Source of the DNA: an uncultured Planctomycetia bacterium | GTDB taxonomy: Bacteria; Omnitrophota; Gorgyraeia; JABMRG01 | DNA length: 64,000 nucleotides | Assembly: GCA_964634945.1 (NCBI GenBank) | Contig: CAZWMG010000002.1 | Coordinates: forward strand, 102,661-166,660 | Direction of reading: 5' to 3' | Shown here: positions 49,501 through 64,000 of the stretch, one piece after another | How the letters are laid out: each line of letters starts with the position of its first letter | How positions within the stretch are numbered: the first letter of the stretch is position 1 | Notes under the pieces: generated by a model | The model's database searches: none | What the model was told of the DNA's origin: nothing | Seen by the model: only the letters and a program-made list of their open reading frames with translations | Position numbers and translations under genes: made by a program

Positions 49501-52415
49501 CGCAGGCAAACGTGGATTATATAAAAGAAGCTGGTGACAGAGATAAGGTATTTGTTATCGGCAGGGATACCAGAGAACAGGGGAATGACTTTATTATGAT
49601 TACCGCGGCAGTATTTGCTGATAATGGCATAAAAGCAGTTATCTCGGACGGATATACACCAACTCCTGTAATTGCACATGCCACTGTTGCTAATGCATAT
49701 GGCGGAGCTATAAATTTTACTGCAAGTCATAATCCCCAAGAGTATAAAGGATACAAGTTTACCCCCTCGCATGGCGGGGCTGTGCTACCGGAAGTAACCG
49801 ATGTAATACAGTCGAAAACGAACGATTACCTAAAGCGATTGGAGTCGGATAGCGGAATTATAGCTGCCTTGAATAGCCCATACCTAAAAGCTGCTTTGAG
49901 TTATAAGGAGATGTTTGAGTCTTTTGTTAATTCCGGTGATATTAAATTCATCGATCCAGTAGAGGCTTATGTAGAGTATCTTTTTGGTCTTGAGATGCAA
50001 GGTGTAAAGATATTTGATAAGGTAACAGATTCCCGGCTTGGTGTTATAGCAAGCGGCTTGCATGGAACAGCAGGCCCTTATTTTGAGCGCATCTTTGGCC
50101 CAAAAGGATTAAATAAGCTGGCAGTAGATGTTTTAAATAGAGCGCCAAGAGAAGACTTCGGCCGTTTTAAGAGCCCCGAGGCAAAAGAAGCAAATCTTAA
50201 GGATGTAGTAGATCTTGTCACTAGGCTTGATAATGTGTTAGGTGTTTCAGGTGACGGTGATGCAGATAGAGAAGGAATTATCGATATAAATAGCAAGTTT
50301 ATAGAACCGAATGAATTAGCTGCTATATTTTATTGGTATCTTCATGAGATAAAGGGTCTAAAAGGCGGCGTTGCAAAGACTGTGGCGACTACGAACCTTC
50401 TTAATGTGTTAGCAGGTACGTTTAATGAAGAATGTTATGAAAAACAGGTAGGTTTCAAGAATTTTATGAATGAGATACTTAGCGGAAAGGCTATTGTGGC
50501 TGCGGAATCGAGCGCTCACATAGGAATAAACGCTGTGTCCTGGGATGACGCTTTTTTATGCGCTCTATTAACATATCAGATACTCTCTGATAAGGACAAT
50601 ATTAAGGAGAAGACAGGCGTTGAATTGAAAGCCCTTACCGATATCTTAGATTATATACAGAATAAGGTTGTTAGCAGTTATTTTAGTTTTTATGAGGGCA
50701 AGATACCGGCTGATGAGGCGACAAAGAGCCTGCTTTTAAGCTGGAATCAAAGCCCCGAGATGCTTAGCAGAAAGCTTGGTGAGGAGCAATTGTTATCTAT
50801 CTTGCAATACAATAATTTAGAGGTAGCTCAGATAAGCACTTTGCCAAAAAAGGGGATAAAGGTTGTTCTTAAGGATAGAAGCTGGCTCTGCCTAAGGCCT
50901 TCAGGCACTGAACCGCTGGTAAGATTATATGCGGAAGGGGCAGATAAGGCTGCGCACGAGGCGTCTAAAAAGAAGGAAATTCTTAAAAAGATAGCTCAAG
51001 CTTTATTGAAGGTTGATAAGGAGAAGCAGTCATTAAAGGCCTCCTCATCCGGCACTCAGAGCGCCCAGGATAGTGTAGAGTTAAGCTCTATCAGCAGACT
51101 TTTTTCTCAATTTGTATCCGAAAAGAATCCAGATACTTTAAGAAGTTTGATAAAAACAGCCAGAGAAGCTATGAGGGATACTTATGCAAATCCAGATAAG
51201 AAAGAGATTCTTCACAATGCAATTCTTTTTGCGGAGATGAGATTACTTAGTGAATTTCCGCCAGAATCAACAAAAGATAAGAAGAAACTCCTTTCTAAAT
51301 ACGCGGAATTGGAAAGGCAGTGGCAGAAAATGTTTGAAAAAATGTCACAAGATGCCTATAAAGTTTCAAAACGATATTTTCCAGATGAGTATAATGTGTT
51401 GCAATATAAGCTCAAGATGTATAAGGATTTTTTAGTTGTGCTTAAGCAAGATATGGAAGAGCTAGAAGATAAATTGCTACAGCAGATCTCAGATGCAAAA
51501 TCCTCCTCAAGTGGTGAGAGCAAACTCTCCGCTGAGAGAGCGGATGCTATTGAGGCAGAGCTTGGACATCTCTTTGATATTACAAGAGAGACTATGATAG
51601 AGGGTCTAGCAAAACCACCTATTGTAAAAATTGATCTAGCGAGAGATGATTTCCTGTCTATTGAATTTGCGCTGCTGCTGGAGAGATATAGGCAGATGGC
51701 TGTAAAAGAGTTTGGGGAAAATATAATAATGGATATCTTGCCTAGTAGAAATGGGAACGAAGGCGTGCGTGTGGGCATATCAGTAAAACCAGATAGCGCA
51801 GCAGTTGAATATAAATCTTCCTCATCTGGTATATTGCTTACTGAAAATGATTTAGGCCTTATTGAACTCGCCGCTGATGTAGCGGACCTAAGTGACGCAA
51901 CAGGTACAATAGTATACGATGATACAGCAATGTCAACAGAACAGCAGGGAATATTACGGAACCTTTTAGGCAAGGGTACACAAGGTTTAGCTGACCTAGA
52001 GGCAAAACTGGGATGTGATGTAAGGCTAATGTCACAAGGCGATGTATCGGATAACGCGAATACAATAATAATCTCAGACGGAGAAATTCCGGGTTTTCTT
52101 AATGCCAAATACTTAATCACAGAGCAGACACAGATAGATACTAGTTATATCGCGGTAACTCCTCTCATAGCGATAGCAAAAGGATTATTGGGGCTAGACA
52201 ACATAACAAGCCAGCCGGAACTATATGAAGCCCTTAAGAGTTCAATAAGAAGCATAAGTCAAGGCCTTCTAAATGCAAGCGATATAGAAGCTGCCATAAC
52301 CGCCTATATAAATGGCAGCCCAATGCTTGTAAAATTACCGCCTGCGTCAGTATATGATTATGATAAGCTTGAGCAGTTGTATCGTCAGGCGCTTATGGTA
52401 TTGATCTCCGCGTAA
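46584..52415 (+). CDS. 1,943-aa fusion protein: nucleoside-diphosphate kinase domain + eukaryotic-type UTP-glucose-1-phosphate uridylyltransferase (UDPGP family) domain + phosphoglucomutase/phosphomannomutase domain + Lys/Glu-rich C-terminal region. It has an N-terminal signal-peptide-like segment.
   Basis: NDK (~46815-47250): KLALAIIKPD...GFEV...FYSEHKDRLFFSDLIEYMTSDESVPVILRGPENAWQKLRNVLG...NRIHGSDS. UGPase (~47450-48950): LNGGIGQAMD (LNGGLGTSMG), APGSHGHWGVY (PPGHGDIY), FNGDGISN, TRAPIDVKGGML (TRADVKGGTL), FNTNTVLL (FNTNNLWI). PGM (49430-50990): GIEFGTSGFRG, TASHNP, GDGDADR, RPSGTEPLVRLYAEG. SD GTGGGGGATAAG before ATG. Signal: MFNKARKAFSYLVLFSFFLNNTAYA. Confidence 0.88.
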   Translation: MFNKARKAFSYLVLFSFFLNNTAYAEIANNSTLRCISSANAHIGQKIASNFLNAPPDIKSSNIKTSSSGIITPEDIFTRKLALAIIKPDVSSDINKNIAANKSLFSRDDIIRELEDKGFEVITTLPANVLTRRDAEEFYSEHKDRLFFSDLIEYMTSDESVPVILRGPENAWQKLRNVLGVVDGNEQNTLREKLGAHRKQLPGNVNIIYNRIHGSDSFQSTLREILFIADKMQSTPFLGSGEKLLMSLSLESDRAYFSALYRQYKLQLLVLNRARFLINADASLTKDDALVRATASITAELKKTGRDKDALILADSKPLIIGQSFFPSALLSDKDFRDKLGAVQYDDIANDPRNIEAATGVTMVQNPLNGGIGQAMDRLGFLEAIWPATGRIGVPVLGAKAMDCYFNVKVVINGQEKEAFVSVAEATILSLLNEVERGSYRHGILEEFISSETSQAMEDLKNTVYLYDRLDPFKADKRTYGNILKEKNMLGIMPEQAMFPRFDVEDNYRLTDKYTAPGSHGHWGVYALSNIPDEELPQDGSIQIRSIFNGDGISNSPNNVIAGWMAREGAPVIMITTTRAPIDVKGGMLGVEYLDDEKVRKNMLELADAKTNDKEQSGQAELFKNMGISETGKNFGKEGMQLFNTNTVLLNDTVLQPFLRELRETLGIEEYNRAISPKMMMKSVVQKDGKEYAQLEGAMGSSMLNLAGFLSTNNDPQIIDLCKKHGIDPNLFLRLVNIDVNKRTDFFAPIKFPIDYWLQFFSDHFTVDTTTWKLKNLRPGHLPALDTPDQDKDEYYSNVLNLFNLFGDKGVLNKNNPVMTSTIGLDLLKLRGKVKIAGSILRGNVVVINEGDGVADLTTGEIQTKLLADNMVSLDNGKLVLEDVAIVIRENGKDIKAAKLQNKESIDIVVSALVSDKASSAGMNQETDIPAIKSIVHQARAALTQERKKGIEFGTSGFRGINSLNELTVAITAQANVDYIKEAGDRDKVFVIGRDTREQGNDFIMITAAVFADNGIKAVISDGYTPTPVIAHATVANAYGGAINFTASHNPQEYKGYKFTPSHGGAVLPEVTDVIQSKTNDYLKRLESDSGIIAALNSPYLKAALSYKEMFESFVNSGDIKFIDPVEAYVEYLFGLEMQGVKIFDKVTDSRLGVIASGLHGTAGPYFERIFGPKGLNKLAVDVLNRAPREDFGRFKSPEAKEANLKDVVDLVTRLDNVLGVSGDGDADREGIIDINSKFIEPNELAAIFYWYLHEIKGLKGGVAKTVATTNLLNVLAGTFNEECYEKQVGFKNFMNEILSGKAIVAAESSAHIGINAVSWDDAFLCALLTYQILSDKDNIKEKTGVELKALTDILDYIQNKVVSSYFSFYEGKIPADEATKSLLLSWNQSPEMLSRKLGEEQLLSILQYNNLEVAQISTLPKKGIKVVLKDRSWLCLRPSGTEPLVRLYAEGADKAAHEASKKKEILKKIAQALLKVDKEKQSLKASSSGTQSAQDSVELSSISRLFSQFVSEKNPDTLRSLIKTAREAMRDTYANPDKKEILHNAILFAEMRLLSEFPPESTKDKKKLLSKYAELERQWQKMFEKMSQDAYKVSKRYFPDEYNVLQYKLKMYKDFLVVLKQDMEELEDKLLQQISDAKSSSSGESKLSAERADAIEAELGHLFDITRETMIEGLAKPPIVKIDLARDDFLSIEFALLLERYRQMAVKEFGENIIMDILPSRNGNEGVRVGISVKPDSAAVEYKSSSSGILLTENDLGLIELAADVADLSDATGTIVYDDTAMSTEQQGILRNLLGKGTQGLADLEAKLGCDVRLMSQGDVSDNANTIIISDGEIPGFLNAKYLITEQTQIDTSYIAVTPLIAIAKGLLGLDNITSQPELYEALKSSIRSISQGLLNASDIEAAITAYINGSPMLVKLPPASVYDYDKLEQLYRQALMVLISA

Positions 52416-52543
52416 TAGCTATTTACAAAGCGATAAGTTTACATTTTGAGTATTGCACTATTTTGTAAAGCTTGATCTCCGCGTAATAGCTATTTACAAA
52501 GCGATAAGTTTACATTTTGAGTATTGCACTATTTTGTAAAGCT
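52401..52543. repeat. 81-nt tandem duplication (52401..52481 and 52482..~52543) that recopies the last codons plus the TAA stop of the fusion gene, together with the 34-nt palindromic element
   Basis: ttgatctccgcgtaatagctatttacaaagcgataagtttacattttgagtattgcactattttgtaaagc occurs twice back-to-back. The second copy diverges into the RBS of the next gene. Confidence 0.85.
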
Positions 52544-52552
52544 AAGGATAAT

Positions 52553-54352
52553 ATGAAAAGTATTCTTAAAAAAATAGTTACCTGTTTAGCGACAGCGACC
52601 TTTCTTATTAGTAGTCCTGCCTACCCATCTTCTATGGATACTAACACATTGCGTTCAAAGGCCTCTGTCAATACTCCCGCTAGTCATAATCTGGCCGATA
52701 GGTTCCTAACCAATGATACACAAGATGCGGAAGGTGGGTTTGTTTTTCGTAAGTGGAGCAAGAAGCCTGATACTTTAGCGTTTGGTAAGTATGGAAGTTT
52801 GAGAAGAAAACCCAACAAGCTTACAGACATAGCATTAGCAAGATTTAATTCACAATTAAGAAAGACAAAAAAACGTTTACTGGATGAAGGTTTTTTTAAT
52901 AAAGAAGATTTTAAGGTTGTATTAGAGATCATCTATCCTGCCTATAAGGCCGCAACATATTCCAAGAAGAGGGATACTATTATATTAGATCGTCGTTGCT
53001 TTGGAAATGACGATTTTTTGTATTTTAAGATCAAGCACGAGCTTACTGACCGCAAATTGCCTGAGATAGATATTATAGGAGAGCAGTTTAAAGAGTTACC
53101 TGGGCTAAGAGAACTCTTTACTCTAATTACAGTGGATATCCAAGGCCTTATGCATTTAAGAGATAACTACCGAGGTCGGGCAGAAGATATATTAAAATAC
53201 TGCCGTAGCGTAGGACATCACAACAGAGGACTATTAACATGTTATGAGAAGATAATGAAGAACCCGTCGCTTAATGACCCGTTTGCTTTTACAGAGGACG
53301 TTTTCAGGCTTGTAGAGAGTGAGAGGCGCAAGGCATATTTTCCGAATACGCGTAAAGCAGTTAGAAAAATAGCCAGAAAAAATAGTGATGGCAGCATTAA
53401 TTATGAGATGACCTCCACTATATTAAGGGCTTGGTTGAAGTCAATACACAAGCAGTTTATTGAATTGCGAGATATAAGAGAGGTATCGCAATTCAAGCCC
53501 CTGACAGATTTTAATAAAAATACGCCTATATCGCTAAGGCCATTTATGCCTTACGCTAAGGAGATAGATTACCAGCTTGACAATGATTGTATCTTTCTGC
53601 GGGTAAAGATAGATGATAAAAAAGGCCGGATCAAGTACGCTTACCTTTATATAGGCCTCAATGATGATTGGAATAGTGTATTAGGAAAGCGCGGAAAGAT
53701 CTATAGCTTAACATATCATAAATGGCAGCATACCAGCTCGGGCATATTTCAGTATGTAAATTATGGTACGGAAAAAGAGAGAGGTTTATACTGGGATTAC
53801 CTTATCAGGCTTCCGGTTAGCCAGTTGATAAGCAAGCTCTGCAACAATTCAGGCCAGGACAATCTTAAAAAACTTTTTTCGGACCTATTTAGTGAGTTGG
53901 GGGTAAAAGGCGACATGGGAAGTAAGGCATGGCTTTCTGTAAAAAAGATCGTAGGAAGAAAAAAGGGGCCGAATAATTATTATGTGATAAGGGGCATAAT
54001 TTGGAAACATATTGATCGCAAGCACCCTAAATTGTTCTTAGGTGAGGATAACCTGCGTGACACCTCTGTGGGTGAGGTACCTGCCTGGTTATTGACAGAA
54101 GATTCTGAGATGGGCCCAAAAGCCCTTTCATTTTTAAATCCGCGTAAAAAATGCAGCTGCCCAAATTTTTATGAAGAAGCAGATCGCATATCTATGCGGG
54201 AGATCTTAAGGATGCTAGAAAAAGCCTCTTCTCAACCTATGCAGCAGATGAACCTTTTTGGCGCGGGAAAGCCTGCCCCTGCTGCTATACTTAGTATTTC
54301 CAATATAAGTAAAGCGCAGATTGTAGATTCTGCTATATATATTGCGGCATAG
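52553..54352 (+). CDS. Secreted hypothetical protein (~599 aa from ATG 52553; the ORF track extends to a TTG at 52517)
   Basis: ATG at 52553 is preceded by AAGGA. N-terminus MKSILKKIVTCLATATFLISSPAYPSS is signal-peptide-like. No recognisable catalytic motifs. Confidence 0.6.
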   Translation: MKSILKKIVTCLATATFLISSPAYPSSMDTNTLRSKASVNTPASHNLADRFLTNDTQDAEGGFVFRKWSKKPDTLAFGKYGSLRRKPNKLTDIALARFNSQLRKTKKRLLDEGFFNKEDFKVVLEIIYPAYKAATYSKKRDTIILDRRCFGNDDFLYFKIKHELTDRKLPEIDIIGEQFKELPGLRELFTLITVDIQGLMHLRDNYRGRAEDILKYCRSVGHHNRGLLTCYEKIMKNPSLNDPFAFTEDVFRLVESERRKAYFPNTRKAVRKIARKNSDGSINYEMTSTILRAWLKSIHKQFIELRDIREVSQFKPLTDFNKNTPISLRPFMPYAKEIDYQLDNDCIFLRVKIDDKKGRIKYAYLYIGLNDDWNSVLGKRGKIYSLTYHKWQHTSSGIFQYVNYGTEKERGLYWDYLIRLPVSQLISKLCNNSGQDNLKKLFSDLFSELGVKGDMGSKAWLSVKKIVGRKKGPNNYYVIRGIIWKHIDRKHPKLFLGEDNLRDTSVGEVPAWLLTEDSEMGPKALSFLNPRKKCSCPNFYEEADRISMREILRMLEKASSQPMQQMNLFGAGKPAPAAILSISNISKAQIVDSAIYIAA

Positions 54353-54564: not shown

Positions 54565-55209
54565 ATGAGAAAGATGTTAGCACTTAGCGCGTTGGCACTG
54601 ATTGCCGTATCATTAGTGGCAACAGGATGCGCCAAACAGGAAGAGATCGTAATTGAGGAGTTTGAGTCCCAGAACGCGGCAACGGGAAAAGATTTTAAGG
54701 TATTCAATATATATACCGATAAGTCATCTCCGGGTAACCATTATATACCTTCAGGCTGGATGGGTGATTTTAGCGACATAAAGATAAACGACCGTTATAT
54801 GGAAGGTGCGCATAGCGGCACTACCTGTATACAGGTAGAGTATCTTCCTCGCCGTTCACAGGGGGCCGGTTGGATGGGAATATATTGGCAGAACCCAGCT
54901 AATAATTGGGGATCTAAAAAGTCAGGCTTTGATCTTACCGGAGCTAAGGAGCTTGTTTTTTGGGCTCGTGGAGCTAAAGGCGGAGAAATAATATCAGAGT
55001 TTAAGATGGGCGGCATTACAGGTGAATTTTCAGATTCTGATTCCGCTGGCATAGGCCCTGCTATGCTTACATCAGATTGGAAAGAGTATAGGATAAATTT
55101 GGAAGGTAAGGATCTATCCCATATAATAGGCGGTTTCTGCTTATCCGCTAACGCTGATGATAACCCTGATGGGTTTATTATCTATCTTGATGATTTAAAG
55201 TACGAATAA
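54565..55209 (+). CDS. Lipoprotein with a beta-sandwich carbohydrate-binding-module-like domain (paralog A of 62607..63209)
   Basis: Lipobox LVATGC. Shares with the 62607 protein the blocks Y.PSGWMGD.SDI, G..C.(Q/K)V.Y, G(A/R)(G/R)W.G.YWQNP.NNWG, DLTGAK.L.FWARG.KGGE.I, G.(K/L)..D..YI.GGF, (I/F)YIDD..YE. Confidence 0.7.
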   Translation: MRKMLALSALALIAVSLVATGCAKQEEIVIEEFESQNAATGKDFKVFNIYTDKSSPGNHYIPSGWMGDFSDIKINDRYMEGAHSGTTCIQVEYLPRRSQGAGWMGIYWQNPANNWGSKKSGFDLTGAKELVFWARGAKGGEIISEFKMGGITGEFSDSDSAGIGPAMLTSDWKEYRINLEGKDLSHIIGGFCLSANADDNPDGFIIYLDDLKYE

Positions 55210-55218
55210 ACATAGAAG

Positions 55219-55270
55219 AATAGGAGATAGCGCCTCTTTTTGTCATAAAGAAAAGGCGCTCTTCCTATTT
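55219..55270 (+). terminator. Imperfect GC-cored hairpin (AGCGCC...GGCGCT with extended A/T pairing) followed by a T-rich tract
   Basis: aataggagatAGCGCCtctttttgtcataaagaaaaGGCGCTcttcctattt, located 10 nt after the stop at 55209. Confidence 0.45.
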
Positions 55271-55285
55271 ATCCGAGGTAATATT

Positions 55286-56572
55286 ATGACTGCTATAAAG
55301 ACTAAGACAAAGCCAAAGAAGACAACAAAGAATAGAAAACTCCTTATGGCCCTGCTGCTTCTCCTGCTGATCCTGCTTCTGGGAGTAGGAGCAACATTAC
55401 TTCTTAAATTTTCCAGCAAGCCAGGCACATATATACATAAGAACACGAAAGGTGACTATGTATTACTTGCTAATGGCAGGCCTTTAATAGTTAAGGGTGT
55501 ATGTTATAGCCCGATACCGGTGGGAGAGGGTTCTGTATATAACTGGTGGGGAGACAAGGCAAGGCCCTGGATGATTGATGGAAAGCTTATGAAAGACGCG
55601 GGGATAAATACAGTTAGATTTTATGAGCCCGGTGACAAGCCATCACAGGTGAAGAAGGTAATATCGGATTTTTATGATAATTATGGTATATACTCGATCA
55701 TGGGCCATGGTTTGGGTTTTTGGGATTTTCCACATGCGAATTACGCGGATCCTGCCTTTCAGCAACAGATCAAAAGGCAGGTATACCAAATGGTAAAGGC
55801 ATACAGAGACGAGCCCGGAGTATTGGCATGGGTCTTAGGTAATGAAGCGAACTATTCTTTTGATGGAAGCGTAAATCCATGGTCTACCTCAGAGCTTGAC
55901 TCTATTAATAACCCGCGCGATAGAAAATTGGCTAAGGCCAAGATATATTACACATTCTTAAATGAGCTTGCCCAGATAGTTAAAAAGATAGATCCGTCCC
56001 GGCCAGTAGGCTTTGGAAACGGCGAGCTTGGCAGTATAGAGGTCGCAAAAGAGTATTGCCCTGATTTTGATTTTGTAGGTATCATAATCTACAGAGGCAA
56101 GTCTTTCGGCAATATGTTCCGCCAGCTTAAAGATAGATATGGGAAACCATCCATCATTATTGAGTTTGGCTGTGACTCTTACAACGCGTTAAAGCAAGAA
56201 CCGGATGAAGAGAACCAAGCATTCTTTTTAAAGACGCTATGGAATGAAGTAGAGTATAATTCATATACGGGTAAGGGTGAAGGAAACTGTTTAGGCGGCT
56301 GCATATTCGAGTGGAATGATGAGTGGTGGAAGCATGGACAGGATGATATCGGTGAATGGAACCTACAAAATACCCAGGCAGGATGGACTAATGGGTCATA
56401 TTATTTTGATACTGAGGGCAATCCTAATATGAATGAGGAATGGTTTGGGATTGTAACTTTAAAGGCTGAAAAAGAGAATGGCGTTAACAAGAGGGTTCCT
56501 AAAAAGGCTTATTACGATTTGAAGGAGCTTTGGGAGCAAGAGGATAAGGTTACTGCCTGCGACTGGAGATAG
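55286..56572 (+). CDS. Membrane-anchored clan GH-A (TIM-barrel) glycosidase/transglycosylase. Its motif pattern most resembles GH72 beta-1,3-glucanosyltransferases (GH2/GH5-like not excluded).
   Basis: N-terminal anchor LLMALLLLLLILLLGVGATLLL. NGRPLIVKGVCYSP (GH72 FYIRGVAYQ), NTVRFYEP (NVIRVY), acid/base VLAWVLGNEANY, nucleophile block IIIEFGCDSY (GH72 FFSEYGCN), GGCIFEWNDEWWKHG (GH72 SGGIVYMYFEEENKYG). Confidence 0.6.
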   Translation: MTAIKTKTKPKKTTKNRKLLMALLLLLLILLLGVGATLLLKFSSKPGTYIHKNTKGDYVLLANGRPLIVKGVCYSPIPVGEGSVYNWWGDKARPWMIDGKLMKDAGINTVRFYEPGDKPSQVKKVISDFYDNYGIYSIMGHGLGFWDFPHANYADPAFQQQIKRQVYQMVKAYRDEPGVLAWVLGNEANYSFDGSVNPWSTSELDSINNPRDRKLAKAKIYYTFLNELAQIVKKIDPSRPVGFGNGELGSIEVAKEYCPDFDFVGIIIYRGKSFGNMFRQLKDRYGKPSIIIEFGCDSYNALKQEPDEENQAFFLKTLWNEVEYNSYTGKGEGNCLGGCIFEWNDEWWKHGQDDIGEWNLQNTQAGWTNGSYYFDTEGNPNMNEEWFGIVTLKAEKENGVNKRVPKKAYYDLKELWEQEDKVTACDWR

Positions 56573-56701
56573 GTTCGTATAACGTTGTGCGTGATGCGTA
56601 TTGCGCAATGCTAAAACCGCAATACCTGCCTACCGGCAGGCAGGCGCGATACGAGATACTCAATACGAATATTATATAATAATACTTAATAAGGAGCAAT
56701 A

Positions 56702-58012
56702 ATGCAAAAGTTTCTGTCAATAGCGTTGTTTTTAGTTATGGTAAGCGTTACTGGTTGCGCACCCGGAAATGGTGCTGACAAAGTTGCATCGGATAAGATA
56801 ACCGTCTGGCATTGGATGACGGATAGAGAAGGCACCTTTAACGAGCTCGCGGAAAAATATAAAGCGCTTACAGGAACGGATGTTAAGTTTGAGTTATACG
56901 CGCCAACAGACGCTTACAGCGAGAAGATAAAAGGCGCGGCACAGACACAAACCCTGCCTGATGTTTTTGGCATACTAGCCGATAAGAGAGTTATATCATC
57001 GTTTATAAAGGCAGGCCATGTTCTTAATCTCGATACTTATATGGATGCGGATAATGGAAAATGGAAAAAGGTATTTTACGCAAAGGCACTGAATGTTAAC
57101 AGGTTCATGCTGGGTAACGAATTTGGGGTTGCGCCAGGCATCTACGCGGCGCCTTTGGATGTAATGAATATACAGATGCTATACAACAAGGATCTGTTTA
57201 AGAAGGCAGGCCTTGACCCGGAGAACCCACCCAGGAACTGGGCAGAATTTTTAGATGCCGGAAACAAGCTTCACGCTGCCGGCATACAAGGCATGGTAAG
57301 CGGATGGGGAGAGATCTGGATGATAGATTGTCTCGCGTCTAATTACGCGTATAATATAATGGGTGAAAAGAAGTTTATTGACACTATCAAGGGAGAGGTC
57401 TCATATGCTGATCAGGACTGGATAGATGTCTTTACTGTTTTTAAAGATATGAGAGACAATAACCTGCTTGCCAATGGTATCGTTACTATGGTCAACAAGC
57501 ACGCGGAACAGATGTTTGCGAACCAACGCGCCGCGCTGGCATTTAATGGTTCATGGTGCGTAAATGTATATCATGGCATGAATCCGGATCTGAATTATGG
57601 CGCAATGTTGCCACCTGCGTATTCAAATAAATACCCTATGAAGATATGGGGTGGAGCGGGTGCCAGCCTTATGGTTAATGCTAGGACTAAAGATAGAGAC
57701 AAGGTCGTTGAATTCTTAAAATGGTTTACAGCTAAAGGCCAGCAGGCATATTTAGCGAATGAGACACGCAACCTGCCCGCTAATAAAGATAGCCTTGGTG
57801 AGATATCTCCCGTATTAGCGCAGTTTGTTGATGATATGGATAGCGTTACCCATCCGAACAATCTTAATGTTTCAGAGTTTCCTAAGGTTATAGAAGCGCG
57901 AGATAAGGGCATACAGTCTATTGTAATAGGCGAAAAGACCCCCGAAGAAGTCGCTTTAGAGGTGCAGGCTGTTAAGATAAGAGAGATGGGAAAAGCAGGG
58001 GGACTCTCCTAA
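56702..58012 (+). CDS. ABC transporter extracellular solute-binding lipoprotein, carbohydrate family (SBP_bac_1/MalE-like)
   Basis: Lipobox VSVTGC; KITVWHWMTD, NIQMLYNKDLFKKAGLDPENPPRNWAEF, typical sugar-SBP length and motifs. SD AAGGAG. Confidence 0.85.
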   Translation: MQKFLSIALFLVMVSVTGCAPGNGADKVASDKITVWHWMTDREGTFNELAEKYKALTGTDVKFELYAPTDAYSEKIKGAAQTQTLPDVFGILADKRVISSFIKAGHVLNLDTYMDADNGKWKKVFYAKALNVNRFMLGNEFGVAPGIYAAPLDVMNIQMLYNKDLFKKAGLDPENPPRNWAEFLDAGNKLHAAGIQGMVSGWGEIWMIDCLASNYAYNIMGEKKFIDTIKGEVSYADQDWIDVFTVFKDMRDNNLLANGIVTMVNKHAEQMFANQRAALAFNGSWCVNVYHGMNPDLNYGAMLPPAYSNKYPMKIWGGAGASLMVNARTKDRDKVVEFLKWFTAKGQQAYLANETRNLPANKDSLGEISPVLAQFVDDMDSVTHPNNLNVSEFPKVIEARDKGIQSIVIGEKTPEEVALEVQAVKIREMGKAGGLS

Positions 58013-58143
58013 AGGGGACGCCCCTGAGCATGGAAATAGATAAAATTTTGCAAAAATAATAAATTTGTGCAACATGCAATAATATATATATAGTTAAGCA
58101 AAATATAGTTATCAGAAAACTAAAAAAACGATAAAACTCAATC

Positions 58144-58166
58144 TCAGGGGTGTCCCCTTTGCTTTA
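58144..58166 (+). terminator. Small GGGG-TGT-CCCC hairpin followed by TTTGCTTT. Candidate intra-operon attenuator between the SBP and permease genes.
   Basis: caGGGGtgtCCCCtttgcttt. A near-reverse-complement partner AGGGGACGCCCCT sits at 58010-58022, overlapping the SBP stop. Confidence 0.3.
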
Positions 58167-58184
58167 AAAAGTTTTAGGAATAAG

Positions 58185-59078
58185 ATGGAACATAGAAAAG
58201 CAAAAAAGATATTTACGAATTATCTCTTTGTCCTACCTGCGGTGCTATTGTTCTGCACCTTTCATCTATACCCTTTTGTGAATGTTTTTCGTTATTCACT
58301 GTTTCAATGGGATGGTATAGTACCATTTTCATCCGCGCAATTTGTAGGCCTCGCGCATTTTAAAGATATATTTACTGCTAATCCACAGTGGTGGTATTCC
58401 ATGTGGCATGCTTTTTATATTACCCTTCTTACATTGATATTTCAGAATGGGCTTGCCCTGCTTTTAGCACTTGCATGTGATAGGGCCATAAGAGGCGCTA
58501 AGGCTTACAGGATGATATTCTTCCTGCCGCCTGTGCTTTCCGGTATCGTGGTAGGACTTATCTGGCAATGGATATATGATGGTAATTATGGGCTTTTAAA
58601 TTACTGGTTGACGAGCATAGGCCTGGGCCATTTAGCGCGTGCCTGGCTTGCGGATCCTAATACCGCACTTACATGCGTTGGCATAGTGCATATGTGGAAG
58701 GGTTTTGGATGGGGCTTTATAATACTCTTGGCCGGCCTTCAATCTATACCCCGTGAATTATATGAGGCGGCAAAGGTAGATGGCGCTGGGGCATGGGATA
58801 CATTCAGGCGCGTTACAGTGCCACTTATGGTGCCTGTCTTTGTTCTTGTAACGATCCTTACAATACTTAATACAATGCAGATATATGATCTGATAGTCTC
58901 TCTTACAGGTGGAGGCCCGGGTTATCATACAGAGGTTCCGATAACAAGGATATTGGCGGCGATGAGGGGTGGCTCGCGTCTTGGTTACGCTTGCGCTCTC
59001 GGCATTGTCTTTGGACTTATGTTACTTGTTGTATCATTTATACAGATACAGGCTTCAAAATTGGCAAAACAGGAGTAA
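58185..59078 (+). CDS. ABC sugar transporter permease (MalF/UgpA-like)
   Basis: Six TM stretches. EAA-loop LQSIPRELYEAAKVDGAGAWDTFRRVTVPLM. Confidence 0.85.
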   Translation: MEHRKAKKIFTNYLFVLPAVLLFCTFHLYPFVNVFRYSLFQWDGIVPFSSAQFVGLAHFKDIFTANPQWWYSMWHAFYITLLTLIFQNGLALLLALACDRAIRGAKAYRMIFFLPPVLSGIVVGLIWQWIYDGNYGLLNYWLTSIGLGHLARAWLADPNTALTCVGIVHMWKGFGWGFIILLAGLQSIPRELYEAAKVDGAGAWDTFRRVTVPLMVPVFVLVTILTILNTMQIYDLIVSLTGGGPGYHTEVPITRILAAMRGGSRLGYACALGIVFGLMLLVVSFIQIQASKLAKQE

Positions 59079-59079
59079 A

Positions 59080-59143
59080 CGTTATAGCGTTATGGGGTTA
59101 TGGTGCTATTGCGTTATAGCGTTATGGGGTTATGGTGTTATTG
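59080..59143. repeat. Two tandem copies of a 32-nt unit (CGTTATAGCGTTATGGGGTTATGGTG(C/T)TATTG) in the permease-permease intergenic space. It belongs to the same family as 137..168 but is in inverted orientation.
   Basis: Direct reading. The reverse complement of 135..170 is cgttatagcgttatggcgttatggcgttatggcg, which matches the first ~26 nt of each unit. Confidence 0.8.
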
Positions 59144-59168
59144 CGTTTAGAGCTATAAAAGGAAAGAG

Positions 59169-60053
59169 ATGCAGAAACCTATATATTACAAAGTAAAACA
59201 ATTCATACTAACGTATTCTACCCATATACTGCTTATTATCGTATCTCTTAGCTGCATACTCCCTCTCTTATGGATGTTCTCATCAAGCTTAAAGACCCAG
59301 GCAACGGTCTTTTCTGATATGAGCCTTTTTCCACAGAATCCGCATTGGGGGAACTTTTATATCGCCTGGACAAAAGGCGGGTTTGGCAGATATTTTTTCA
59401 ATAGCCTGCTTTATACTATCGTAGTTGTGCTAGGTATCGTATTTGTTACATCTCTAGCCGCGTATGGTATTTCACGGCTTAAGATACCCGGTAAGAATAT
59501 TATATTTTATGTTTTTTTAGCTGCCATGATGATACCGATACCCGGCGCGTTTGTGGCATTGTATGTGCTTTTAAATAAGCTGGGATTCTTGAACCCCCAA
59601 ACAGGTTTTCCATTACTGGATAACGCTATAATGAGGCTTGGCTATATCCTACCTTTGATAAACAGCGGGCTCTCTCTCGGTATATATATGCTTAAGACGT
59701 TTTTTGATAAGATGCCCGGTGACCTGGAAGATTCCGCGAGGATAGACGGCTGCTCGGTATTTGGCATATATTGGCACATAGCCTTACCTATGGCAAAGCC
59801 CGCGATAGCGGTTATTGTAATCTTTAATACATTGAATGTGTGGAACGAATACTTGCTCGCCATGCTTGTGTTGACAGGCAAGAACCTTATGCCTTTAACC
59901 AGGGCACTTATGGTCTTTCGCGGTACACATATTACTGAATACCCGCTTCTTATGTCAGGCATGACAATTACGGTAATACCGATAATAATTGTGTATATAT
60001 TATTACAAAAACATATCATAGCGGGCATAACAGCAGGAGCGGTAAAGGGATGA
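59169..60053 (+). CDS. ABC sugar transporter permease (MalG/UgpE-like)
   Basis: EAA-loop LEDSARIDGCSVFGIYWHIALPMAKPA. Six hydrophobic stretches. Overlaps the next gene by 4 nt (ATGA). Confidence 0.85.
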   Translation: MQKPIYYKVKQFILTYSTHILLIIVSLSCILPLLWMFSSSLKTQATVFSDMSLFPQNPHWGNFYIAWTKGGFGRYFFNSLLYTIVVVLGIVFVTSLAAYGISRLKIPGKNIIFYVFLAAMMIPIPGAFVALYVLLNKLGFLNPQTGFPLLDNAIMRLGYILPLINSGLSLGIYMLKTFFDKMPGDLEDSARIDGCSVFGIYWHIALPMAKPAIAVIVIFNTLNVWNEYLLAMLVLTGKNLMPLTRALMVFRGTHITEYPLLMSGMTITVIPIIIVYILLQKHIIAGITAGAVKG

Positions 60054-60673
60054 AAGTTCGGTTATCGGTTGTAGGTTTTGGGTTATCGTTAATACTTTTT
60101 GCAACAATACTAGTTGCGGTTTATGCTTTTGCGCTTGAATTGCCGGAAGGAGTAAAGGATTATTATAAAGACGGCGTGGCTAGCGCTCCCGGGAGATCAG
60201 AAGGAGTGCCTCCTACAGTCAAGAAGGCTGATGTAAAAGAAGGCGTTGATATGGGCAGGAGGGAGACCAAGGAGTATGATTTTAGCGATGAATCCGCGGG
60301 AGCCCTTATGGCAAAGGCATGGGAAGCGCTTAATAAAAAAGATGAGCAGGCCCTAACCGCTTATACGTCAAGGTGCATAGAACTTTACGAAGAAGATGCG
60401 AAAGATCAAGAGGCAAAACTTGATGCCTTCGCGCCATCAGGCTCTGAAGCGGATTACGACGCCTTAAATAATGTCGCTGTCTCTTATTTTATTCGAGGTG
60501 AATTTTACAAGTACAAGAAGGATTGGAAAGAATCCAGTAAGAATTATAAGAAGGTTGTAGATAATTTTTATTTTGCGCAATACTGGGATCCACGCGGATG
60601 GTGGTGGAAGCCGGCGGAGATATCAGAAGGCGAGATAAAAAAGATTGATGAAGGTTATTATGAGAAAGATTAA
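60050..60673 (+). CDS. Membrane-anchored hypothetical protein (207 aa), translationally coupled within the transporter operon
   Basis: N-terminal TM (VVGFGLSLILFATILVAVYAFAL). Start overlaps the upstream stop. The next gene starts 2 nt after its stop. Confidence 0.6.
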   Translation: MKVRLSVVGFGLSLILFATILVAVYAFALELPEGVKDYYKDGVASAPGRSEGVPPTVKKADVKEGVDMGRRETKEYDFSDESAGALMAKAWEALNKKDEQALTAYTSRCIELYEEDAKDQEAKLDAFAPSGSEADYDALNNVAVSYFIRGEFYKYKKDWKESSKNYKKVVDNFYFAQYWDPRGWWWKPAEISEGEIKKIDEGYYEKD

Positions 60674-60675
60674 GT

Positions 60676-62571
60676 ATGCGTTCTAAGCTCTACATCCTGT
60701 GTTCTATATTAGTATTTTCTTTCATAGTCTTGTTGGCTGGTTGCGGGTCATCTAATAGCTTTGAGGAGGCACCTAGTTTTAAACTCGCGGAAAGAGGAAG
60801 CGAAGGCATAATAGATTACAAAAAATATGGCGTCTTTGAGGGCGTTGGTACACAAGATTACCGTTATATTATAGATGACCAGGCAGGCCTGTCAAAGGCT
60901 GTTGGTGAGGGCATATATCCAAATTCATCAAGCGTACTTAAGGACCCGGGGTATGAGGAATTTAAGAGTTCAGGCAGGCTCAAGGGCAAGCATTGGGATT
61001 TTATAAATAAACCTGAATATCAGGCAAATTTTTATAAGTGGGCAACGGCGCCTGAGGATAGAGGAGTGAAATTATTTTATACTGCTTTTGCCCTTGAAAA
61101 ATCAGGCCATATAAAGCAGGCTATCAAGGCGTATTACGCGCTTTGCGTAAATTTTCCAAAGACTATAGGGTGGACATATTGGCATACACCCTGGTATGTT
61201 GGCCAGGTGTCGATTGACAAGATAAGATTTTTATGTAAAAAATATCCTCAGCTAGGGTGGAGACTTGAGGGTGGATATATACTTGTAAAGAATGGCTATG
61301 ATGACAATGTAAGAAACGATGTATTCATAGTTGATCCGGGGCGGATTGTAAAGGCGAAACCGGAACAGCTTCAAGAGAAGAGAAGAGATATAGCCAACCA
61401 AGAGATTATTAAATCAACAGGGGATGATCATATCAAGCTTGTACAGTATGAGGATAGGTCATGGCAGCTTTATGTTGACGGCAAGCCTTACATCATTAAA
61501 GGGATTGCTTATGAGCCCAGCAAGATAGGCCAGAGTCCTGATCAGGGAAATCTTGAGGATTGGATGCAGCAGGATAATAACCATAACTCTAAGATAGATG
61601 CGCCATATGACACATGGGTCGATAAGAATAAGAATGATATTAAGGATGCTGATGAGCAGGTGGTAGGTGATTTTAATCTTTTATGGAATATGGGTTGTAA
61701 TACCATAAGGGTGTATCATCATGCTTCAAATATGCCGTTGTTAAGAGACCTTTATGAAAATTATGGGATTATGTCACTGATGGGTGATTTTATAGGGGCA
61801 TATGCTATAGGCTCAGGCGCTACATGGTATAAAGGTACGGATTATTCGGACCCGGTTCAGCAGCAGAATATGTTGGATAGCATAAAAGAGATGGTAGATA
61901 CGTATAAGGATGAACCGTATGTACTTATGTGGGTCCTAGGAAATGAGAACAACTACGGTGTGGCTAATAACGCTAAGAAGGACCCTGTATCATACTATAA
62001 GTTTGTAAATAAGGCAGCAGAGTTTATAAAATCGATAGATCCCCATAACAGGCCGGTCGCTATATGCAACGGAGAGATAATATTCCTTGATATATTTGCC
62101 AAAGAATGCCCCGCTGTAGATGTATTTGGTTTGAATTCGTATCGTGGAGATTATGGTTTTGGCCATTTATGGCTTACTGTAAAGGAAGAGGCGGATATCC
62201 CGGTTATTATAACAGAATATGGTTGCCCGGCACATAATATGTATACAGATGAGGCAACAGCCGAATTGCAGCAGGCAGAATATTTAAAAAATTGCTGGAT
62301 TGATATTATATCTAATTCAGATGGCTATGGGCAGGGGAATAGTTTGGGCGGAGTATTATTTGAATGGGTAGATGAGTGGTGGAAGGCGTATGAGCCTGGG
62401 CTGCATGATACAAAGCCTTTATGGGCAGGATCATTTCCCGATGGATGGATGCATGAGGAATGGCTCGGAGTAGCATCACAAGGCAGCGGTAAGAATAGTC
62501 CGTATCAACGGGTCTTAAGAAAAGCATATTACGAATACAGGGATATGTGGAAAACTAGGGAAAGCGACTAG
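60676..62571 (+). CDS. Lipoprotein clan GH-A glycosidase/transglycosylase, GH72-like (paralog of 55286..56572), with an extra ~230-aa N-terminal region
   Basis: Lipobox VLLAGCGSS. DGKPYIIKGIAYEP (GH72 NGSQFYIRGVAYQ), NTIRVYHH, VLMWVLGNENNYG, VIITEYGCPAHN, GGVLFEWVDEWWKAY. Confidence 0.6.
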   Translation: MRSKLYILCSILVFSFIVLLAGCGSSNSFEEAPSFKLAERGSEGIIDYKKYGVFEGVGTQDYRYIIDDQAGLSKAVGEGIYPNSSSVLKDPGYEEFKSSGRLKGKHWDFINKPEYQANFYKWATAPEDRGVKLFYTAFALEKSGHIKQAIKAYYALCVNFPKTIGWTYWHTPWYVGQVSIDKIRFLCKKYPQLGWRLEGGYILVKNGYDDNVRNDVFIVDPGRIVKAKPEQLQEKRRDIANQEIIKSTGDDHIKLVQYEDRSWQLYVDGKPYIIKGIAYEPSKIGQSPDQGNLEDWMQQDNNHNSKIDAPYDTWVDKNKNDIKDADEQVVGDFNLLWNMGCNTIRVYHHASNMPLLRDLYENYGIMSLMGDFIGAYAIGSGATWYKGTDYSDPVQQQNMLDSIKEMVDTYKDEPYVLMWVLGNENNYGVANNAKKDPVSYYKFVNKAAEFIKSIDPHNRPVAICNGEIIFLDIFAKECPAVDVFGLNSYRGDYGFGHLWLTVKEEADIPVIITEYGCPAHNMYTDEATAELQQAEYLKNCWIDIISNSDGYGQGNSLGGVLFEWVDEWWKAYEPGLHDTKPLWAGSFPDGWMHEEWLGVASQGSGKNSPYQRVLRKAYYEYRDMWKTRESD

Positions 62572-62606
62572 TCTTCATAAACACAATACAAACAAAGGAG
62601 GAGCAC

Positions 62607-63209
62607 ATGGGCAAAAAAAGATTTTTAGGTTTGATAGTATTTGCGGCTCTGGTTTTTAGCACGATGGCGCTTCAGGCGCAGAGTGTGGAGTTCTTTGAGC
62701 CATTCAATGTCTATACAGACAAAAACGCGCGCGGCAATCACTATTCTCCGTCGGGATGGATGGGTGATTACAGTGACATCGCTTTTACGGACGCGTGGAA
62801 AGAAAACCCGCATTCAGGTATGAGTTGTATTAAGGTTAATTATAAGCCTAAGGCTTCACAGGGCGCAAGGTGGACAGGCATGTATTGGCAGAACCCACCT
62901 AATAACTGGGGAGAGAAGAAGGGCGGATATGATCTAACAGGCGCTAAAAAACTCACATTCTGGGCACGTGGAGAAAAAGGCGGTGAACGCATAGAAGAGG
63001 TCAAGATAGGCGGCTTATCAGGCACATACCCTGATTCAGATATCGCGGCAGCAGGCCCTATTATCTTGACAAAAGATTGGCAGGAGTATAGTATAAATCT
63101 AGATGGTAAAGACCTAAGCTATATAAGCGGTGGCTTTGTATGGGCTACTAATCTTGATGTTAATCCAAGTGGGTGTACTTTTTATATTGATGATATAAGA
63201 TACGAATAA
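62607..63209 (+). CDS. Secreted CBM-like beta-sandwich protein (paralog B of 54565..55209)
   Basis: Signal peptide MGKKRFLGLIVFAALVFSTMALQAQS. Shares the blocks listed for paralog A. SD GGAGGAG. Confidence 0.7.
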   Translation: MGKKRFLGLIVFAALVFSTMALQAQSVEFFEPFNVYTDKNARGNHYSPSGWMGDYSDIAFTDAWKENPHSGMSCIKVNYKPKASQGARWTGMYWQNPPNNWGEKKGGYDLTGAKKLTFWARGEKGGERIEEVKIGGLSGTYPDSDIAAAGPIILTKDWQEYSINLDGKDLSYISGGFVWATNLDVNPSGCTFYIDDIRYE

Positions 63210-63339
63210 AACACACCTGCGTGAATAATGAAGAAAAAGGGGCAGTTTGCTTTTATACAGTCTTTTTATAGAAGTAGCCTGCTCCTTTTTTAACTAGAAA
63301 TAGCGGTTTAAGGTACGGTTTTTGTAATACAATAAATCT

Positions 63340-64000
63340 ATGAAACAAGATTATCCAGATCGCAGAAAATATATAAGGTTGAATTCATGTTTCCCAATTG
63401 AATTCAGCTTCTTTTTTTCCGCGAAAACAACACTCACAAAAGAATACCAGGGTTTTACGCGTGACATCTCTGAAGGTGGCTTATGCCTTGACGCGAAGAA
63501 CCTAAGCGATGAAGATTCCGTGCTTGTGTTGAAAAAATGGCCGAGTCTGAATCTTACTATTGATATACCTGTCTTGGGCCATCTGGTTAAGACAAGAGCA
63601 AAGGTTGTATGGGTTAAAAAAGATGATAGTGACACGGAAAAGAATAACTATTTTATAGGGGTCTCTTACCTGGATATAAATGCTAAGGATAAGAGGAAGA
63701 TTATAAATTACGCACGGCGCTTGAAATATTTACCACGTTTGGCTGTAGCGTTACTTGTTCTTATGTTTCTAGGAATAGCGGCCCTTTCTTTTTATCATAT
63801 ACAGTCAAAAAAAGAGAATAAGGTGCTGGTAAATCAGCTTGTTTCTGTATCAGAGGTTAAGTCTGATCTTGAAAAGCGCTTAAATGAGCTCAAGACCCGC
63901 AAGGATATGCTGGAGGCCAAGCTTGTTAAAAGCGCTGAAGGAGCTGTAGGTCTTAAGCAAAGAATAGCTGATATAGAAAAGAGATTGACTGATGAGAAGA
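63340..64000 (+). CDS. PilZ-domain (c-di-GMP-binding) protein, 5' part; continues past the window end. It has a C-terminal TM segment and a coiled coil.
   Basis: The ORF is open from ATG 63340 to the window edge. The PilZ signature RRKYIRL (RxxxR) ... DISEGGLCL (D.S.GG) has correct spacing. This is preferred over the overlapping minus-strand 94-aa ORF 63351..63635. Confidence 0.55.
   Translation, partial: MKQDYPDRRKYIRLNSCFPIEFSFFFSAKTTLTKEYQGFTRDISEGGLCLDAKNLSDEDSVLVLKKWPSLNLTIDIPVLGHLVKTRAKVVWVKKDDSDTEKNNYFIGVSYLDINAKDKRKIINYARRLKYLPRLAVALLVLMFLGIAALSFYHIQSKKENKVLVNQLVSVSEVKSDLEKRLNELKTRKDMLEAKLVKSAEGAVGLKQRIADIEKRLTDEK

Follow-up and report, generated by a model that had tools for sequence, protein, structure and literature searches.

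CUT1 sugar importers that share a stand-alone ATPase are exemplified by those served by MsiK in Streptomyces and by MsmX in Bacillus, and operons without an ATPase gene are routine among them. In loci of glycoside hydrolase (GH) family 158, extracytoplasmic enzymes stand within a glycan-uptake locus beside dedicated glycan-binding proteins; the solved enzymes are BuGH158, from the β(1,3)-glucan utilisation locus of Bacteroides uniformis (PDB 6PAL), and GH158(Pro) (PDB 9ORO/9P25). Type B β-glucan-binding modules of carbohydrate-binding module (CBM) families 30 and 11 are known from cellulases and lichenases of Clostridium thermocellum. Members of the phylum Omnitrophota are uncultured, ultra-small and possibly host-dependent, their carbon sources have been inferred from genomes only, and one study concluded that the enzymes which would begin the breakdown of polysaccharides are missing from them (PMC8542988). 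PilZ genes, transporters for carbohydrates that depend on a substrate-binding protein (SBP), and glycosyl hydrolases are shown downstream of Omnitrophota "giant genes" in Fig. 7C of a preprint (West-Roberts et al. 2023, 10.1101/2023.11.21.568195). Here, we describe a glycan-uptake cassette in a 64,000-nt stretch of Omnitrophota DNA (contig CAZWMG010000002.1, positions 102,661 to 166,660), which is called the window below.

The listing of open reading frames (ORFs) placed eight consecutive ORFs on the + strand at 54565-63209, in the order CBM-A, GH-A, SBP, permease 1, permease 2, a 207-amino acid (aa) protein, GH-B and CBM-B; order and boundaries are exactly those of an initial annotation made from the sequence. 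The window has a G+C content of ~40% and a positive GC skew throughout, and its large ORFs all lie on the + strand. The 207-aa gene overlaps the stop of permease 2 by 4 nt and ends 2 nt ahead of GH-B. Behind CBM-B, RNA folding detected a terminator-like hairpin with a U-rich 3′ side (63233-63291, + strand; −28.8 kcal/mol; z-score, −4.5; equalled by 0 of 200 shuffles), which closes the cassette, and scans for promoter and terminator consensus sequences gave nothing informative except this hairpin. Because of the short intergenic gaps, the 4-nt overlap and the strong hairpin, the eight genes look like one transcription unit. We favour, with moderate confidence, the reading that the cassette represents, in this lineage, a module which occurs throughout the Omnitrophota and serves to capture, cut and import a β-glucan.

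Hydrolases and CBM-like proteins

GH-A (55286-56572, + strand) is a 428-aa protein of the signal-anchor type. GH-B (60676-62571, + strand) is a 631-aa putative lipoprotein, in which a ~250-aa N-domain with no relative among PDB sequences precedes the barrel. Both are predicted to contain a clan GH-A (β/α)8 glycosidase barrel related to GH158. The initial annotation had paired them as paralogs, in agreement with their pairwise alignment (32% identity over 402 columns, E 2e-56), and had called them GH72-like. The sole Pfam model passed by the two proteins was the GH2 TIM barrel (GH2_C, PF02836; cut-off, 21 bits), with 43.2 bits for GH-A and 50 bits for GH-B, and all 32 GH-B relatives passed it as well; database names of the relatives are "GH2 TIM barrel-domain containing protein" and "beta-glucuronidase". 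Neither hydrolase matched the GH2 accessory domains PF02837 or PF00703, and the NCBIfam GH2 equivalog models gave 15-37 bits against cut-offs of 544-2000. Only ~20 residues lie between the membrane helix of GH-A and its barrel. For GH72 (PF03198; cut-off, 25.9 bits), GH-A reached just 18 bits and GH-B gave no match, and no GH72 chain was present among the PDB matches shown for sequence profile or fold. Since the GH72 model was matched by 16 of the 32 GH-B relatives at E≤0.01 (best, 2.2e-9), "GH72-like" is a fair impression at the level of the clan; as a family assignment it does not stand, GH158 being closer. With both GH2 and GH72, the window proteins have the barrel of clan GH-A and the catalytic NE/E motifs in common, but the accessory domains of the former are absent here and the cut-off of the latter is not reached.

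GH158 was the top match of both hydrolases in single-sequence PDB searches (for GH-A, 9oro at 4.5e-9). The family profile of GH-B (A2) matched GH158 at 6.5e-16 and 1.5e-14, with GH2 β-glucuronidases next at ~5e-11, and the family profile of GH-A (A4) matched GH158 at 7e-14, with GH2 next at 2e-5. When an AF2 model of GH-B (pLDDT 80.8, pTM 0.83) was searched with Foldseek, the two solved GH158 enzymes ranked first (E 5e-13 and 3e-12), with 17-22% identity (21-22% over ~335 structural columns) and a target-normalised TM of 0.49-0.55; GH2 glucuronidases and GH5 mannanases came after them. The catalytic residues of GH158(Pro), Glu143 and Glu229 (PMC13195107), fall in the alignment on E424 and E514 of GH-B, neither of which varies in 32 sequences, and the equivalent residues of GH-A, E187 and E293, are invariant in 26 sequences. 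By these sequence and model comparisons, GH-A and GH-B are best described as GH158-related clan GH-A enzymes of unsettled family, belonging to neither GH2 nor GH72. As the nearest solved structures are endo-β-1,3-glucanases of GH158, the initial placement of the hydrolases in a glucan-associated corner of clan GH-A was upheld. The likeness to the GH158 systems comprises the barrel, the aligned glutamate pair and a predicted extracytoplasmic setting beside putative glycan-binding proteins. They differ in that GH-B bears a novel N-domain, joined in relatives by a tetratricopeptide repeat (TPR) module, in that uptake here would proceed through an ABC system instead of SusC/D, and in that the enzyme activity here is a prediction.

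The two small proteins at the ends of the cassette, CBM-A (54565-55209, + strand; 214 aa) and CBM-B (62607-63209, + strand; 200 aa), are likewise paralogs, as first proposed, with 61% identity over 171 residues (E 4e-83). CBM-A is a putative lipoprotein with a linker and a ~170-aa CBM30/CBM11-like β-sandwich domain, and CBM-B, also CBM30/CBM11-like, is predicted to be secreted (signal peptidase I type). Neither matched a Pfam family at E≤0.1 or any PDB sequence, and CBM-A matched the profile of its own family (A1) at E 6e-101. An AF2 model of CBM-B is a β-sandwich (pLDDT 79), and the predicted fold of CBM-A is taken from this paralogue model. With the model, Foldseek placed CBM30 first (E 3e-6) and CBM11 bound to mixed-linkage glucan next (2e-5), with 12-16% identity and a TM of 0.5-0.6 to these two, followed by CBM8, CBM29, CBM4, CBM16 and CBM22. 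Clustering leaves 2062 family members at 90% and 2607 representatives at 50%, and those with names come almost entirely from Omnitrophota; ~50 positions are invariant in a 29-sequence alignment, and exact and near-exact copies of CBM-B are present on metagenomic contigs.

An exhaustive search of the family found up to 8 tandem copies of the domain per protein. In a scan of 50 multidomain relatives, a GH17 catalytic domain with 2-3 copies of the module behind it was found in 14 and a GH2_C-like barrel in 3. The Pfam models CBM30 and CBM_11 were matched by 4 and 1, respectively, of 40 divergent multi-copy relatives; in P0242, the CBM30 match sits inside a copy of the CBM-like domain. The description "CBM-like", which the initial annotation had already used, is well supported because of the CBM30 and CBM11 fold matches, which are the best in the PDB, the tandem copies, the GH17 fusions and the Pfam matches of divergent copies. 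The family to which the small proteins belong is unclassified; its predicted fold resembles CBM30 and CBM11, and its binding of carbohydrate is putative. They resemble CBM30 and CBM11 in the predicted β-jelly-roll fold and in being appended in tandem, in relatives, to glucanase catalytic domains (GH17). They differ from them in being free-standing secreted or lipid-anchored proteins, in lacking a Pfam match and in their unusually strong conservation. Examples of tandem arrays or GH17 fusions are P0241 (1745 aa), P0242 (941 aa), P0248, P0254, P0259 and P0283; many of the GH17 fusions are proteins for which no taxonomy is given, and FG-GAP, BACON, Ig-like, cohesin, dockerin and type IX secretion tail domains co-occur with the CBM-like domain as well. 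A stand-alone CBM-like gene also occurs in an Omnitrophota metagenome-assembled genome (MAG) at L051:9947-10552, two genes downstream of a gene for a 2838-aa protein (L051:987-9503) with the architecture of a cyclic β-1,2-glucan synthase (a weak GT2-type match, a glucoamylase-like domain, and GH94 supersandwich and catalytic domains).

Export signals were judged by inspection of sequence patterns. GH-A has a basic N-terminus and one hydrophobic helix with no lipobox, and lipoboxes were found in GH-B (LLAGC), CBM-A (VATGC) and the SBP (SVTGC); CBM-B has a cleavable-looking signal ending in ALQA/QS. The distinct anchoring signals that had been noted for the two hydrolases and the two CBM-like proteins are thus visible in the patterns. 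The further proposal that the paralogs occupy different extracytoplasmic positions agrees with these differing signals, and localisation itself is a reasonable expectation from them. Among GH-A-type relatives, 44 of 46 have an N-terminal helix without a lipobox. Ordinary signal peptides are usual in GH-B-type relatives, a lipobox being found in 12 of 49, the window lineage included, and CBM relatives occur in both lipoprotein and plain-signal forms.

Importer and gene order

The SBP (56702-58012, + strand; 436 aa) is a predicted substrate-binding lipoprotein, with Pfam matches to SBP_bac_1 (1.8e-34) and SBP_bac_8 (8e-29). Permease 1 (58185-59078, + strand; 297 aa) and permease 2 (59169-60053, + strand; 294 aa) both match BPD_transp_1 (8.7e-14 and 3.4e-12, respectively). 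Permease 1 is closest to UgpA (1.7e-31) and MalF (2.3e-23), both below the model cut-offs, and permease 2 to MalG (6e-29) and UgpE (4.3e-27). Each carries an EAA loop (YEAAKVDGAG and EDSARIDGCS), and an SBP_bac_1 binding protein with two MalF/MalG-type permeases bearing EAA loops is the composition of a CUT1 importer. Comparison of the SBP with the PDB and NCBIfam gave weak, mixed matches to binders of chitin, maltose, and xylo-, arabino- and sophoro-oligosaccharides. Its specificity is not assignable because the PDB relatives are assorted oligosaccharide binders with E-values no better than 3.5e-17.

The initial annotation had stated that the window encodes no ABC ATPase. A search for Walker A and LSGGQ motifs agreed with this, since no ORF in the 64 kb combines the two, and the result extends to ~10 kb downstream on contigs with an identical or near-identical cassette. 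Related loci were sampled from species-representative genomes (79 loci) and metagenomes (8 loci) and annotated by BLAST against the window proteins; no MalK/MsiK-type ATPase was found in any of these 87 loci, beside the permeases or elsewhere. Three ORFs in them combine Walker A with LSGGQ, and by size and sequence these look ABC-F-like, MlaF-like and PstB-like. An ATPase acting in trans, as had been suggested, is supported by the absence of a linked gene, and a supplementary table places sugar-transporter ATPases of other Omnitrophota MAGs on separate contigs (PMC8542988, Table S5).

By analogy with the importers that share MsiK or MsmX, an operon without an ATPase gene is the usual state of this transporter family and nothing peculiar. 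The resemblance extends to the SBP_bac_1 lipoprotein, the MalF/MalG-like permeases and the EAA loops. The difference is that the partner ATPase is putative here, the evidence being the supplementary table on other Omnitrophota MAGs.

The initial annotation had described a mirror-duplicated cassette flanking the importer. This did not hold when gene order was counted over 82 distinct loci. GH-B, CBM and GH-A are contiguous in 28 of them, and in 22 the whole series of SBP, permeases, GH-B, CBM and GH-A is contiguous, so that 22-28 loci keep the hydrolases and CBM genes together downstream of the permeases. CBM is followed by GH-A in 47 loci, whereas the order of the window (CBM, GH-A, SBP) is found in only 3, namely the window, L005 and L010. 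A second variant, without GH-A, comprises an MFS gene, a TPR protein, GH116, LacI and GH94. The GH-A and GH-B types form separate conserved groups in all relatives. A fresh inverted or mirror duplication was rejected on the basis of this separation, the low identity of the GH pair (32%) and the different usual order. Because both GH types belong with the CBM genes to an old, conserved set, the mirror is explained as a lineage-specific transposition of the CBM-A/GH-A pair, and the layout most probably arose when this pair, in this lineage, left its place downstream of GH-B/CBM and came to lie ahead of the SBP gene.

Two or more CBM genes are present in 16 loci and a fused tandem CBM gene in 17. 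Where a locus has two CBM genes, the copies are usually mutual closest relatives, and CBM-A of the window stands on its own long branch in a neighbour-joining tree. In L019, L021 and L022, adjacent CBM pairs whose copies are mutual closest relatives lie between GH-B and GH-A, which suggests repeated duplication or gene conversion.

The 207-aa protein (60050-60673, + strand) has an N-terminal hydrophobic helix and one TPR-like module. Its residues 82-199 share 38% identity (E 1e-24) with residues 48-165 of a 782-aa GH-B-type protein of L053, and it shares 47% and 41% identity with two tandem modules of a 281-aa protein of L007 that matches TPR models. In most relatives GH-B is long (~760-820 aa) and includes the TPR module. 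In the window lineage, the module is encoded by a gene of its own, with a hydrophobic N-terminus, and GH-B (631 aa) has its own lipoprotein signal; the split TPR gene and short GH-B are also found in L001, L005 and L010. From these comparisons, we read the 207-aa protein as the N-terminal TPR module of the canonical long GH-B, probably separated by gene fission. The earlier term "small membrane protein" is to be corrected to this split-off module. The 207-aa protein was also considered as a paralogue of the GH-B N-domain and rejected (a marginal BLAST match of 27%, E 0.001), the TPR module of the longer GH-B being the region that matches.

The module occurs in hundreds of species-level genomes. 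On a 1.14-Mb closed chromosome (CP070655.1), a GH-B-type gene of 331 aa (L013:8970-9965) encodes nothing but the barrel and stands behind genes that look like housekeeping genes. Genes for an SBP or permeases are absent nearby, CBM, PilZ and GH94 follow as usual, and the module appears reduced in this small genome.

Substrate and role of the module

In the proposed mechanism, the two CBM30/CBM11-like proteins, which stand free and of which one is lipid-anchored and the other soluble, would bind the polymer or its fragments, in a pairing that resembles the surface glycan-binding proteins of Bacteroides loci. GH-A, tethered to the cytoplasmic membrane by its uncleaved helix, and GH-B, a lipoprotein with an accessory N-domain and the 207-aa protein as its detached TPR partner, would act as retaining clan GH-A endo-glycosidases related to GH158 laminarinases at two extracytoplasmic positions. 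The SBP would pass the resulting oligosaccharides to the MalFG-type permeases, powered by a MalK/MsiK-type ATPase encoded elsewhere. Cytoplasmic cleavage would be performed by a GH94 phosphorylase and a GH116 β-glucosidase, which are found beside the module in relatives, and ROK or LacI repressors would exert control. The GH116 neighbours in related loci are of the β-glucosidase type, and both LacI and ROK regulators occur there, which fits catabolism.

A β-1,3 linkage is favoured, on sequence grounds, by the GH158 affinity of both hydrolases, the recurrent partnering of the CBM-like domain with GH17, a β-1,3-glucan family, and the sub-threshold similarity to GH72. A β-1,4 or mixed linkage is favoured by CBM30 and CBM11 as structural neighbours and by GH94, nearest to cellobiose and chitobiose phosphorylases. 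We tentatively take the substrate to be a β-glucan in which β-1,3 is the leading candidate linkage for the extracytoplasmic step, an assignment that we would place somewhat below an even chance.

Several observations weigh against the β-glucan importer reading or parts of it. The neighbouring GH94 of relatives is closest to cellobiose phosphorylase (3.5e-145), followed by chitobiose phosphorylase (2.5e-127 for 8bou_A and 3e-125 for 1v7v_A), and both are far nearer than laminaribiose phosphorylase (2e-41), which points to disaccharides with β-1,4 linkages or N-acetylglucosamine (GlcNAc). The locus has no outer-membrane component for uptake, the compartments are predicted from sequence patterns, and the weak, mixed matches of the SBP do not yield a ligand. 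The similarity to GH158 is remote (~21% identity, TM ~0.5), and the sequence alignments, at E 1e-9 to 1e-16 across the PDB searches, span 125-180 residues and thus part of the barrel. GH158 has a C-terminal eight-stranded Ig-like domain packed on the barrel (PMC13195107). This domain is absent here: past strand 8, the AF2 model of GH-B consists of short low-confidence segments and a terminal helix, and the C-terminus of GH-A lies ~75 residues past the equivalent of strand 8 in the alignment with GH-B. Within the aromatic platform that sets the β-1,3 geometry in GH158 (Trp77, Phe278, Tyr291 and Trp236), Trp236 alone falls in the aligned stretch, and this +1 subsite residue of GH158(Pro) aligns with a variable position. 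Finally, conservation across the sampled relatives (55-60% identity for GH-B and 60-70% for CBM) is very high for nutrient-niche genes and hints at a more central role.

Such a role might lie in the harvesting of a prey or host envelope, with the module and the adjacent giant protein stripping and importing glycans from the surface or wall of an attached host. The target would then be a host envelope polymer, possibly containing GlcNAc, instead of a free environmental β-glucan. The cassette lies ~8 kb downstream of a 14,300-aa ORF, "GH2" hydrolases are the most recurrent catalytic flank of giant genes in the data cited from a 2026 complete-genome preprint, and the very high conservation fits a core lifestyle function. 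The proximity of the neighbouring GH94 to chitobiose phosphorylase agrees with a GlcNAc-containing target, as does the top NCBIfam match of the SBP, the chitobiose binder NgcE, far under its cut-off. However, Pfam found no lysozyme, amidase or transglycosylase domain in the cassette, the nearest enzymes and binding modules are specific for β-glucan, in many related loci the 10 kb around the module hold no giant gene, and the giant ORF holds no copy of the CBM-like or GH domains. On balance, we consider envelope harvesting unlikely.

The same conservation would suit a housekeeping role, in which GH-A and GH-B, as transglycosylases like those of GH72 or bacterial GH17, build or remodel a β-glucan that the cell itself has in its periplasm or on its surface, with c-di-GMP control through the PilZ neighbour and recycling of fragments by the importer. 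The GH72 glucanosyltransferase matches of half of the GH-B relatives, the frequent fusion of the CBM-like domain to GH17, and the conserved PilZ membrane protein next to the module are in line with this. So are the 1943-aa fusion of NDK, UDP-glucose-pyrophosphorylase-like and phosphoglucomutase domains just upstream and the L051 CBM-like gene near the cyclic β-1,2-glucan synthase-like protein. Yet SBP-dependent MalFG-type systems are importers, the loci hold catabolic enzymes (GH94 and GH116) and sugar-responsive repressors, the conserved module has no glycosyltransferase, and the window proteins themselves fall under the GH72 cut-off, so that we regard remodelling of self-glucan as improbable. 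Least probable of all is that the hydrolases are ordinary GH2-type exo-glycosidases (β-galactosidase, β-glucuronidase or β-mannosidase) acting on non-glucan glycosides, as the GH2_C matches and database names would have it, because the GH2 N-terminal sugar-binding and immunoglobulin-like domains are absent, the equivalog models fall far below their cut-offs, and GH158 outranks all GH2 structures by 5 orders of magnitude with the GH-B profile and 9 with the GH-A profile.

The β-glucan importer reading remains the one that we prefer. In this form, the finding is genuine but for the most part ordinary, namely a glycan-utilisation operon of the CUT1 type that relies on an ATPase in trans and has a synteny that, in the parts of the preprints cited here, is already published for Omnitrophota. 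The mirror layout and the missing ATPase have little significance in themselves. Beyond those parts of the published accounts go the GH158-related identity of the two hydrolase types, the free-standing CBM30/CBM11-like family, the TPR fission and the recognition of the mirror as a local rearrangement. Automatic pipelines label the parts of the module only as "GH2 TIM barrel", "beta-glucuronidase" or "hypothetical". If the hydrolases are endo-glucanases and the small proteins glycan binders, the conclusion of PMC8542988 needs revision, and the substrate would point to the food source of these bacteria (free β-glucan or a host surface polymer). To enzymology, the module offers two candidate new CAZy families with well-defined targets for expression. 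A more far-reaching reading, which we consider doubtful, sees in the module a core apparatus for feeding that defines the phylum, strips a specific β-glucan from host or prey and is coupled genetically to giant surface proteins; its parts would be an unclassified hydrolase family, sister to GH158, whose two forms are anchored differently, a new family of CBMs that serve as free glycan-binding proteins, and a PilZ membrane protein that senses c-di-GMP. If true, this would overturn the published inference that Omnitrophota are without polysaccharide-depolymerising enzymes (PMC8542988).

Flanking genes

Directly behind the hairpin, the window contains the 5′ part of a PilZ gene (63340-64000, + strand). 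The gene is complete on L001, L002 and L005 (L005:10607-12730), where it encodes a 707-aa protein that has a PilZ domain (4.6e-9) at its N-terminus as well as a coiled coil and one transmembrane helix; the C-terminal half of the protein is unannotated. The gene lies directly behind GH-A in 15 related loci and behind a CBM gene in 8, and this neighbour suggests that the module receives input from c-di-GMP. Two short ORFs immediately ahead of the SBP gene, L053:3797-4141 (114 aa) and L019:4134-4580 (148 aa), show by eye a basic N-terminal motif like that of PilZ; in many canonical loci the same position is taken by ORFs of ~110-135 aa without annotation, which fits the small pilZ genes reported downstream of giant genes.

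The giant ORF of the window (3520-46422, + strand; 14,300 aa) is an Omnitrophota "giant gene". Three Pfam scans of its product matched only two LysM repeats (~residue 3765) and a SecA-like P-loop (residues 2764-2979). The region downstream of published giant genes has the same synteny as the window, comprising the giant gene, PilZ, an SBP-dependent transporter and hydrolases called GH2. The difference is that the GH paralogue types, the GH158 affinity, the CBM-like family, the TPR fission and the rearranged order are not described in the cited parts of those reports.

An AcrB gene is also present upstream in the window. A Gram-positive origin, to which the G+C content of 40% and the constant skew had first pointed, was rejected on account of this gene and of the Omnitrophota names that the relatives bear. 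Between the giant ORF and the cassette lie two further genes. The first (46584-52415, + strand) encodes a 1943-aa protein that joins an NDK domain, a region weakly similar to UDP-glucose pyrophosphorylase and all four phosphoglucomutase/phosphomannomutase domains, and that may process glucose-1-phosphate from the GH94 phosphorylase or make nucleotide sugars; its L005 equivalent (2217 aa) has DUF4922 and GDPGP1 domains. The second (52517-54352, + strand; TTG start) encodes a 611-aa protein with a faint fucose-pyrophosphorylase match only, and it is kept directly upstream of CBM-A in L001, L005 and L010.

In relatives, the PilZ gene is followed by a gene for a 1074-aa protein and then by GH94. 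Proteins of ~1070 aa without a Pfam match are encoded behind the PilZ gene at L005:12743-15967, with homologues in L002, L009, L010, L012 and L049. In L005, the 1074-aa gene and GH94 are separated by a Y1-type (IS200-like) transposase gene (L005:15954-16586, − strand), which is not there in L009 and L010. In canonical loci, other large secreted proteins without annotation (~800-950 aa) are encoded behind GH-A or GH116 (for example, L053:11803-14583 and L019:16541-18952). Several MAGs whose loci are 74-99% identical to this cassette (L009, L010, L012, L019 and others) are titled "uncultured Planctomycetia", some of these at 95-99% identity, one "Dehalococcoidales" and one "Eisenbacteria"; these titles look like taxonomic mislabels.

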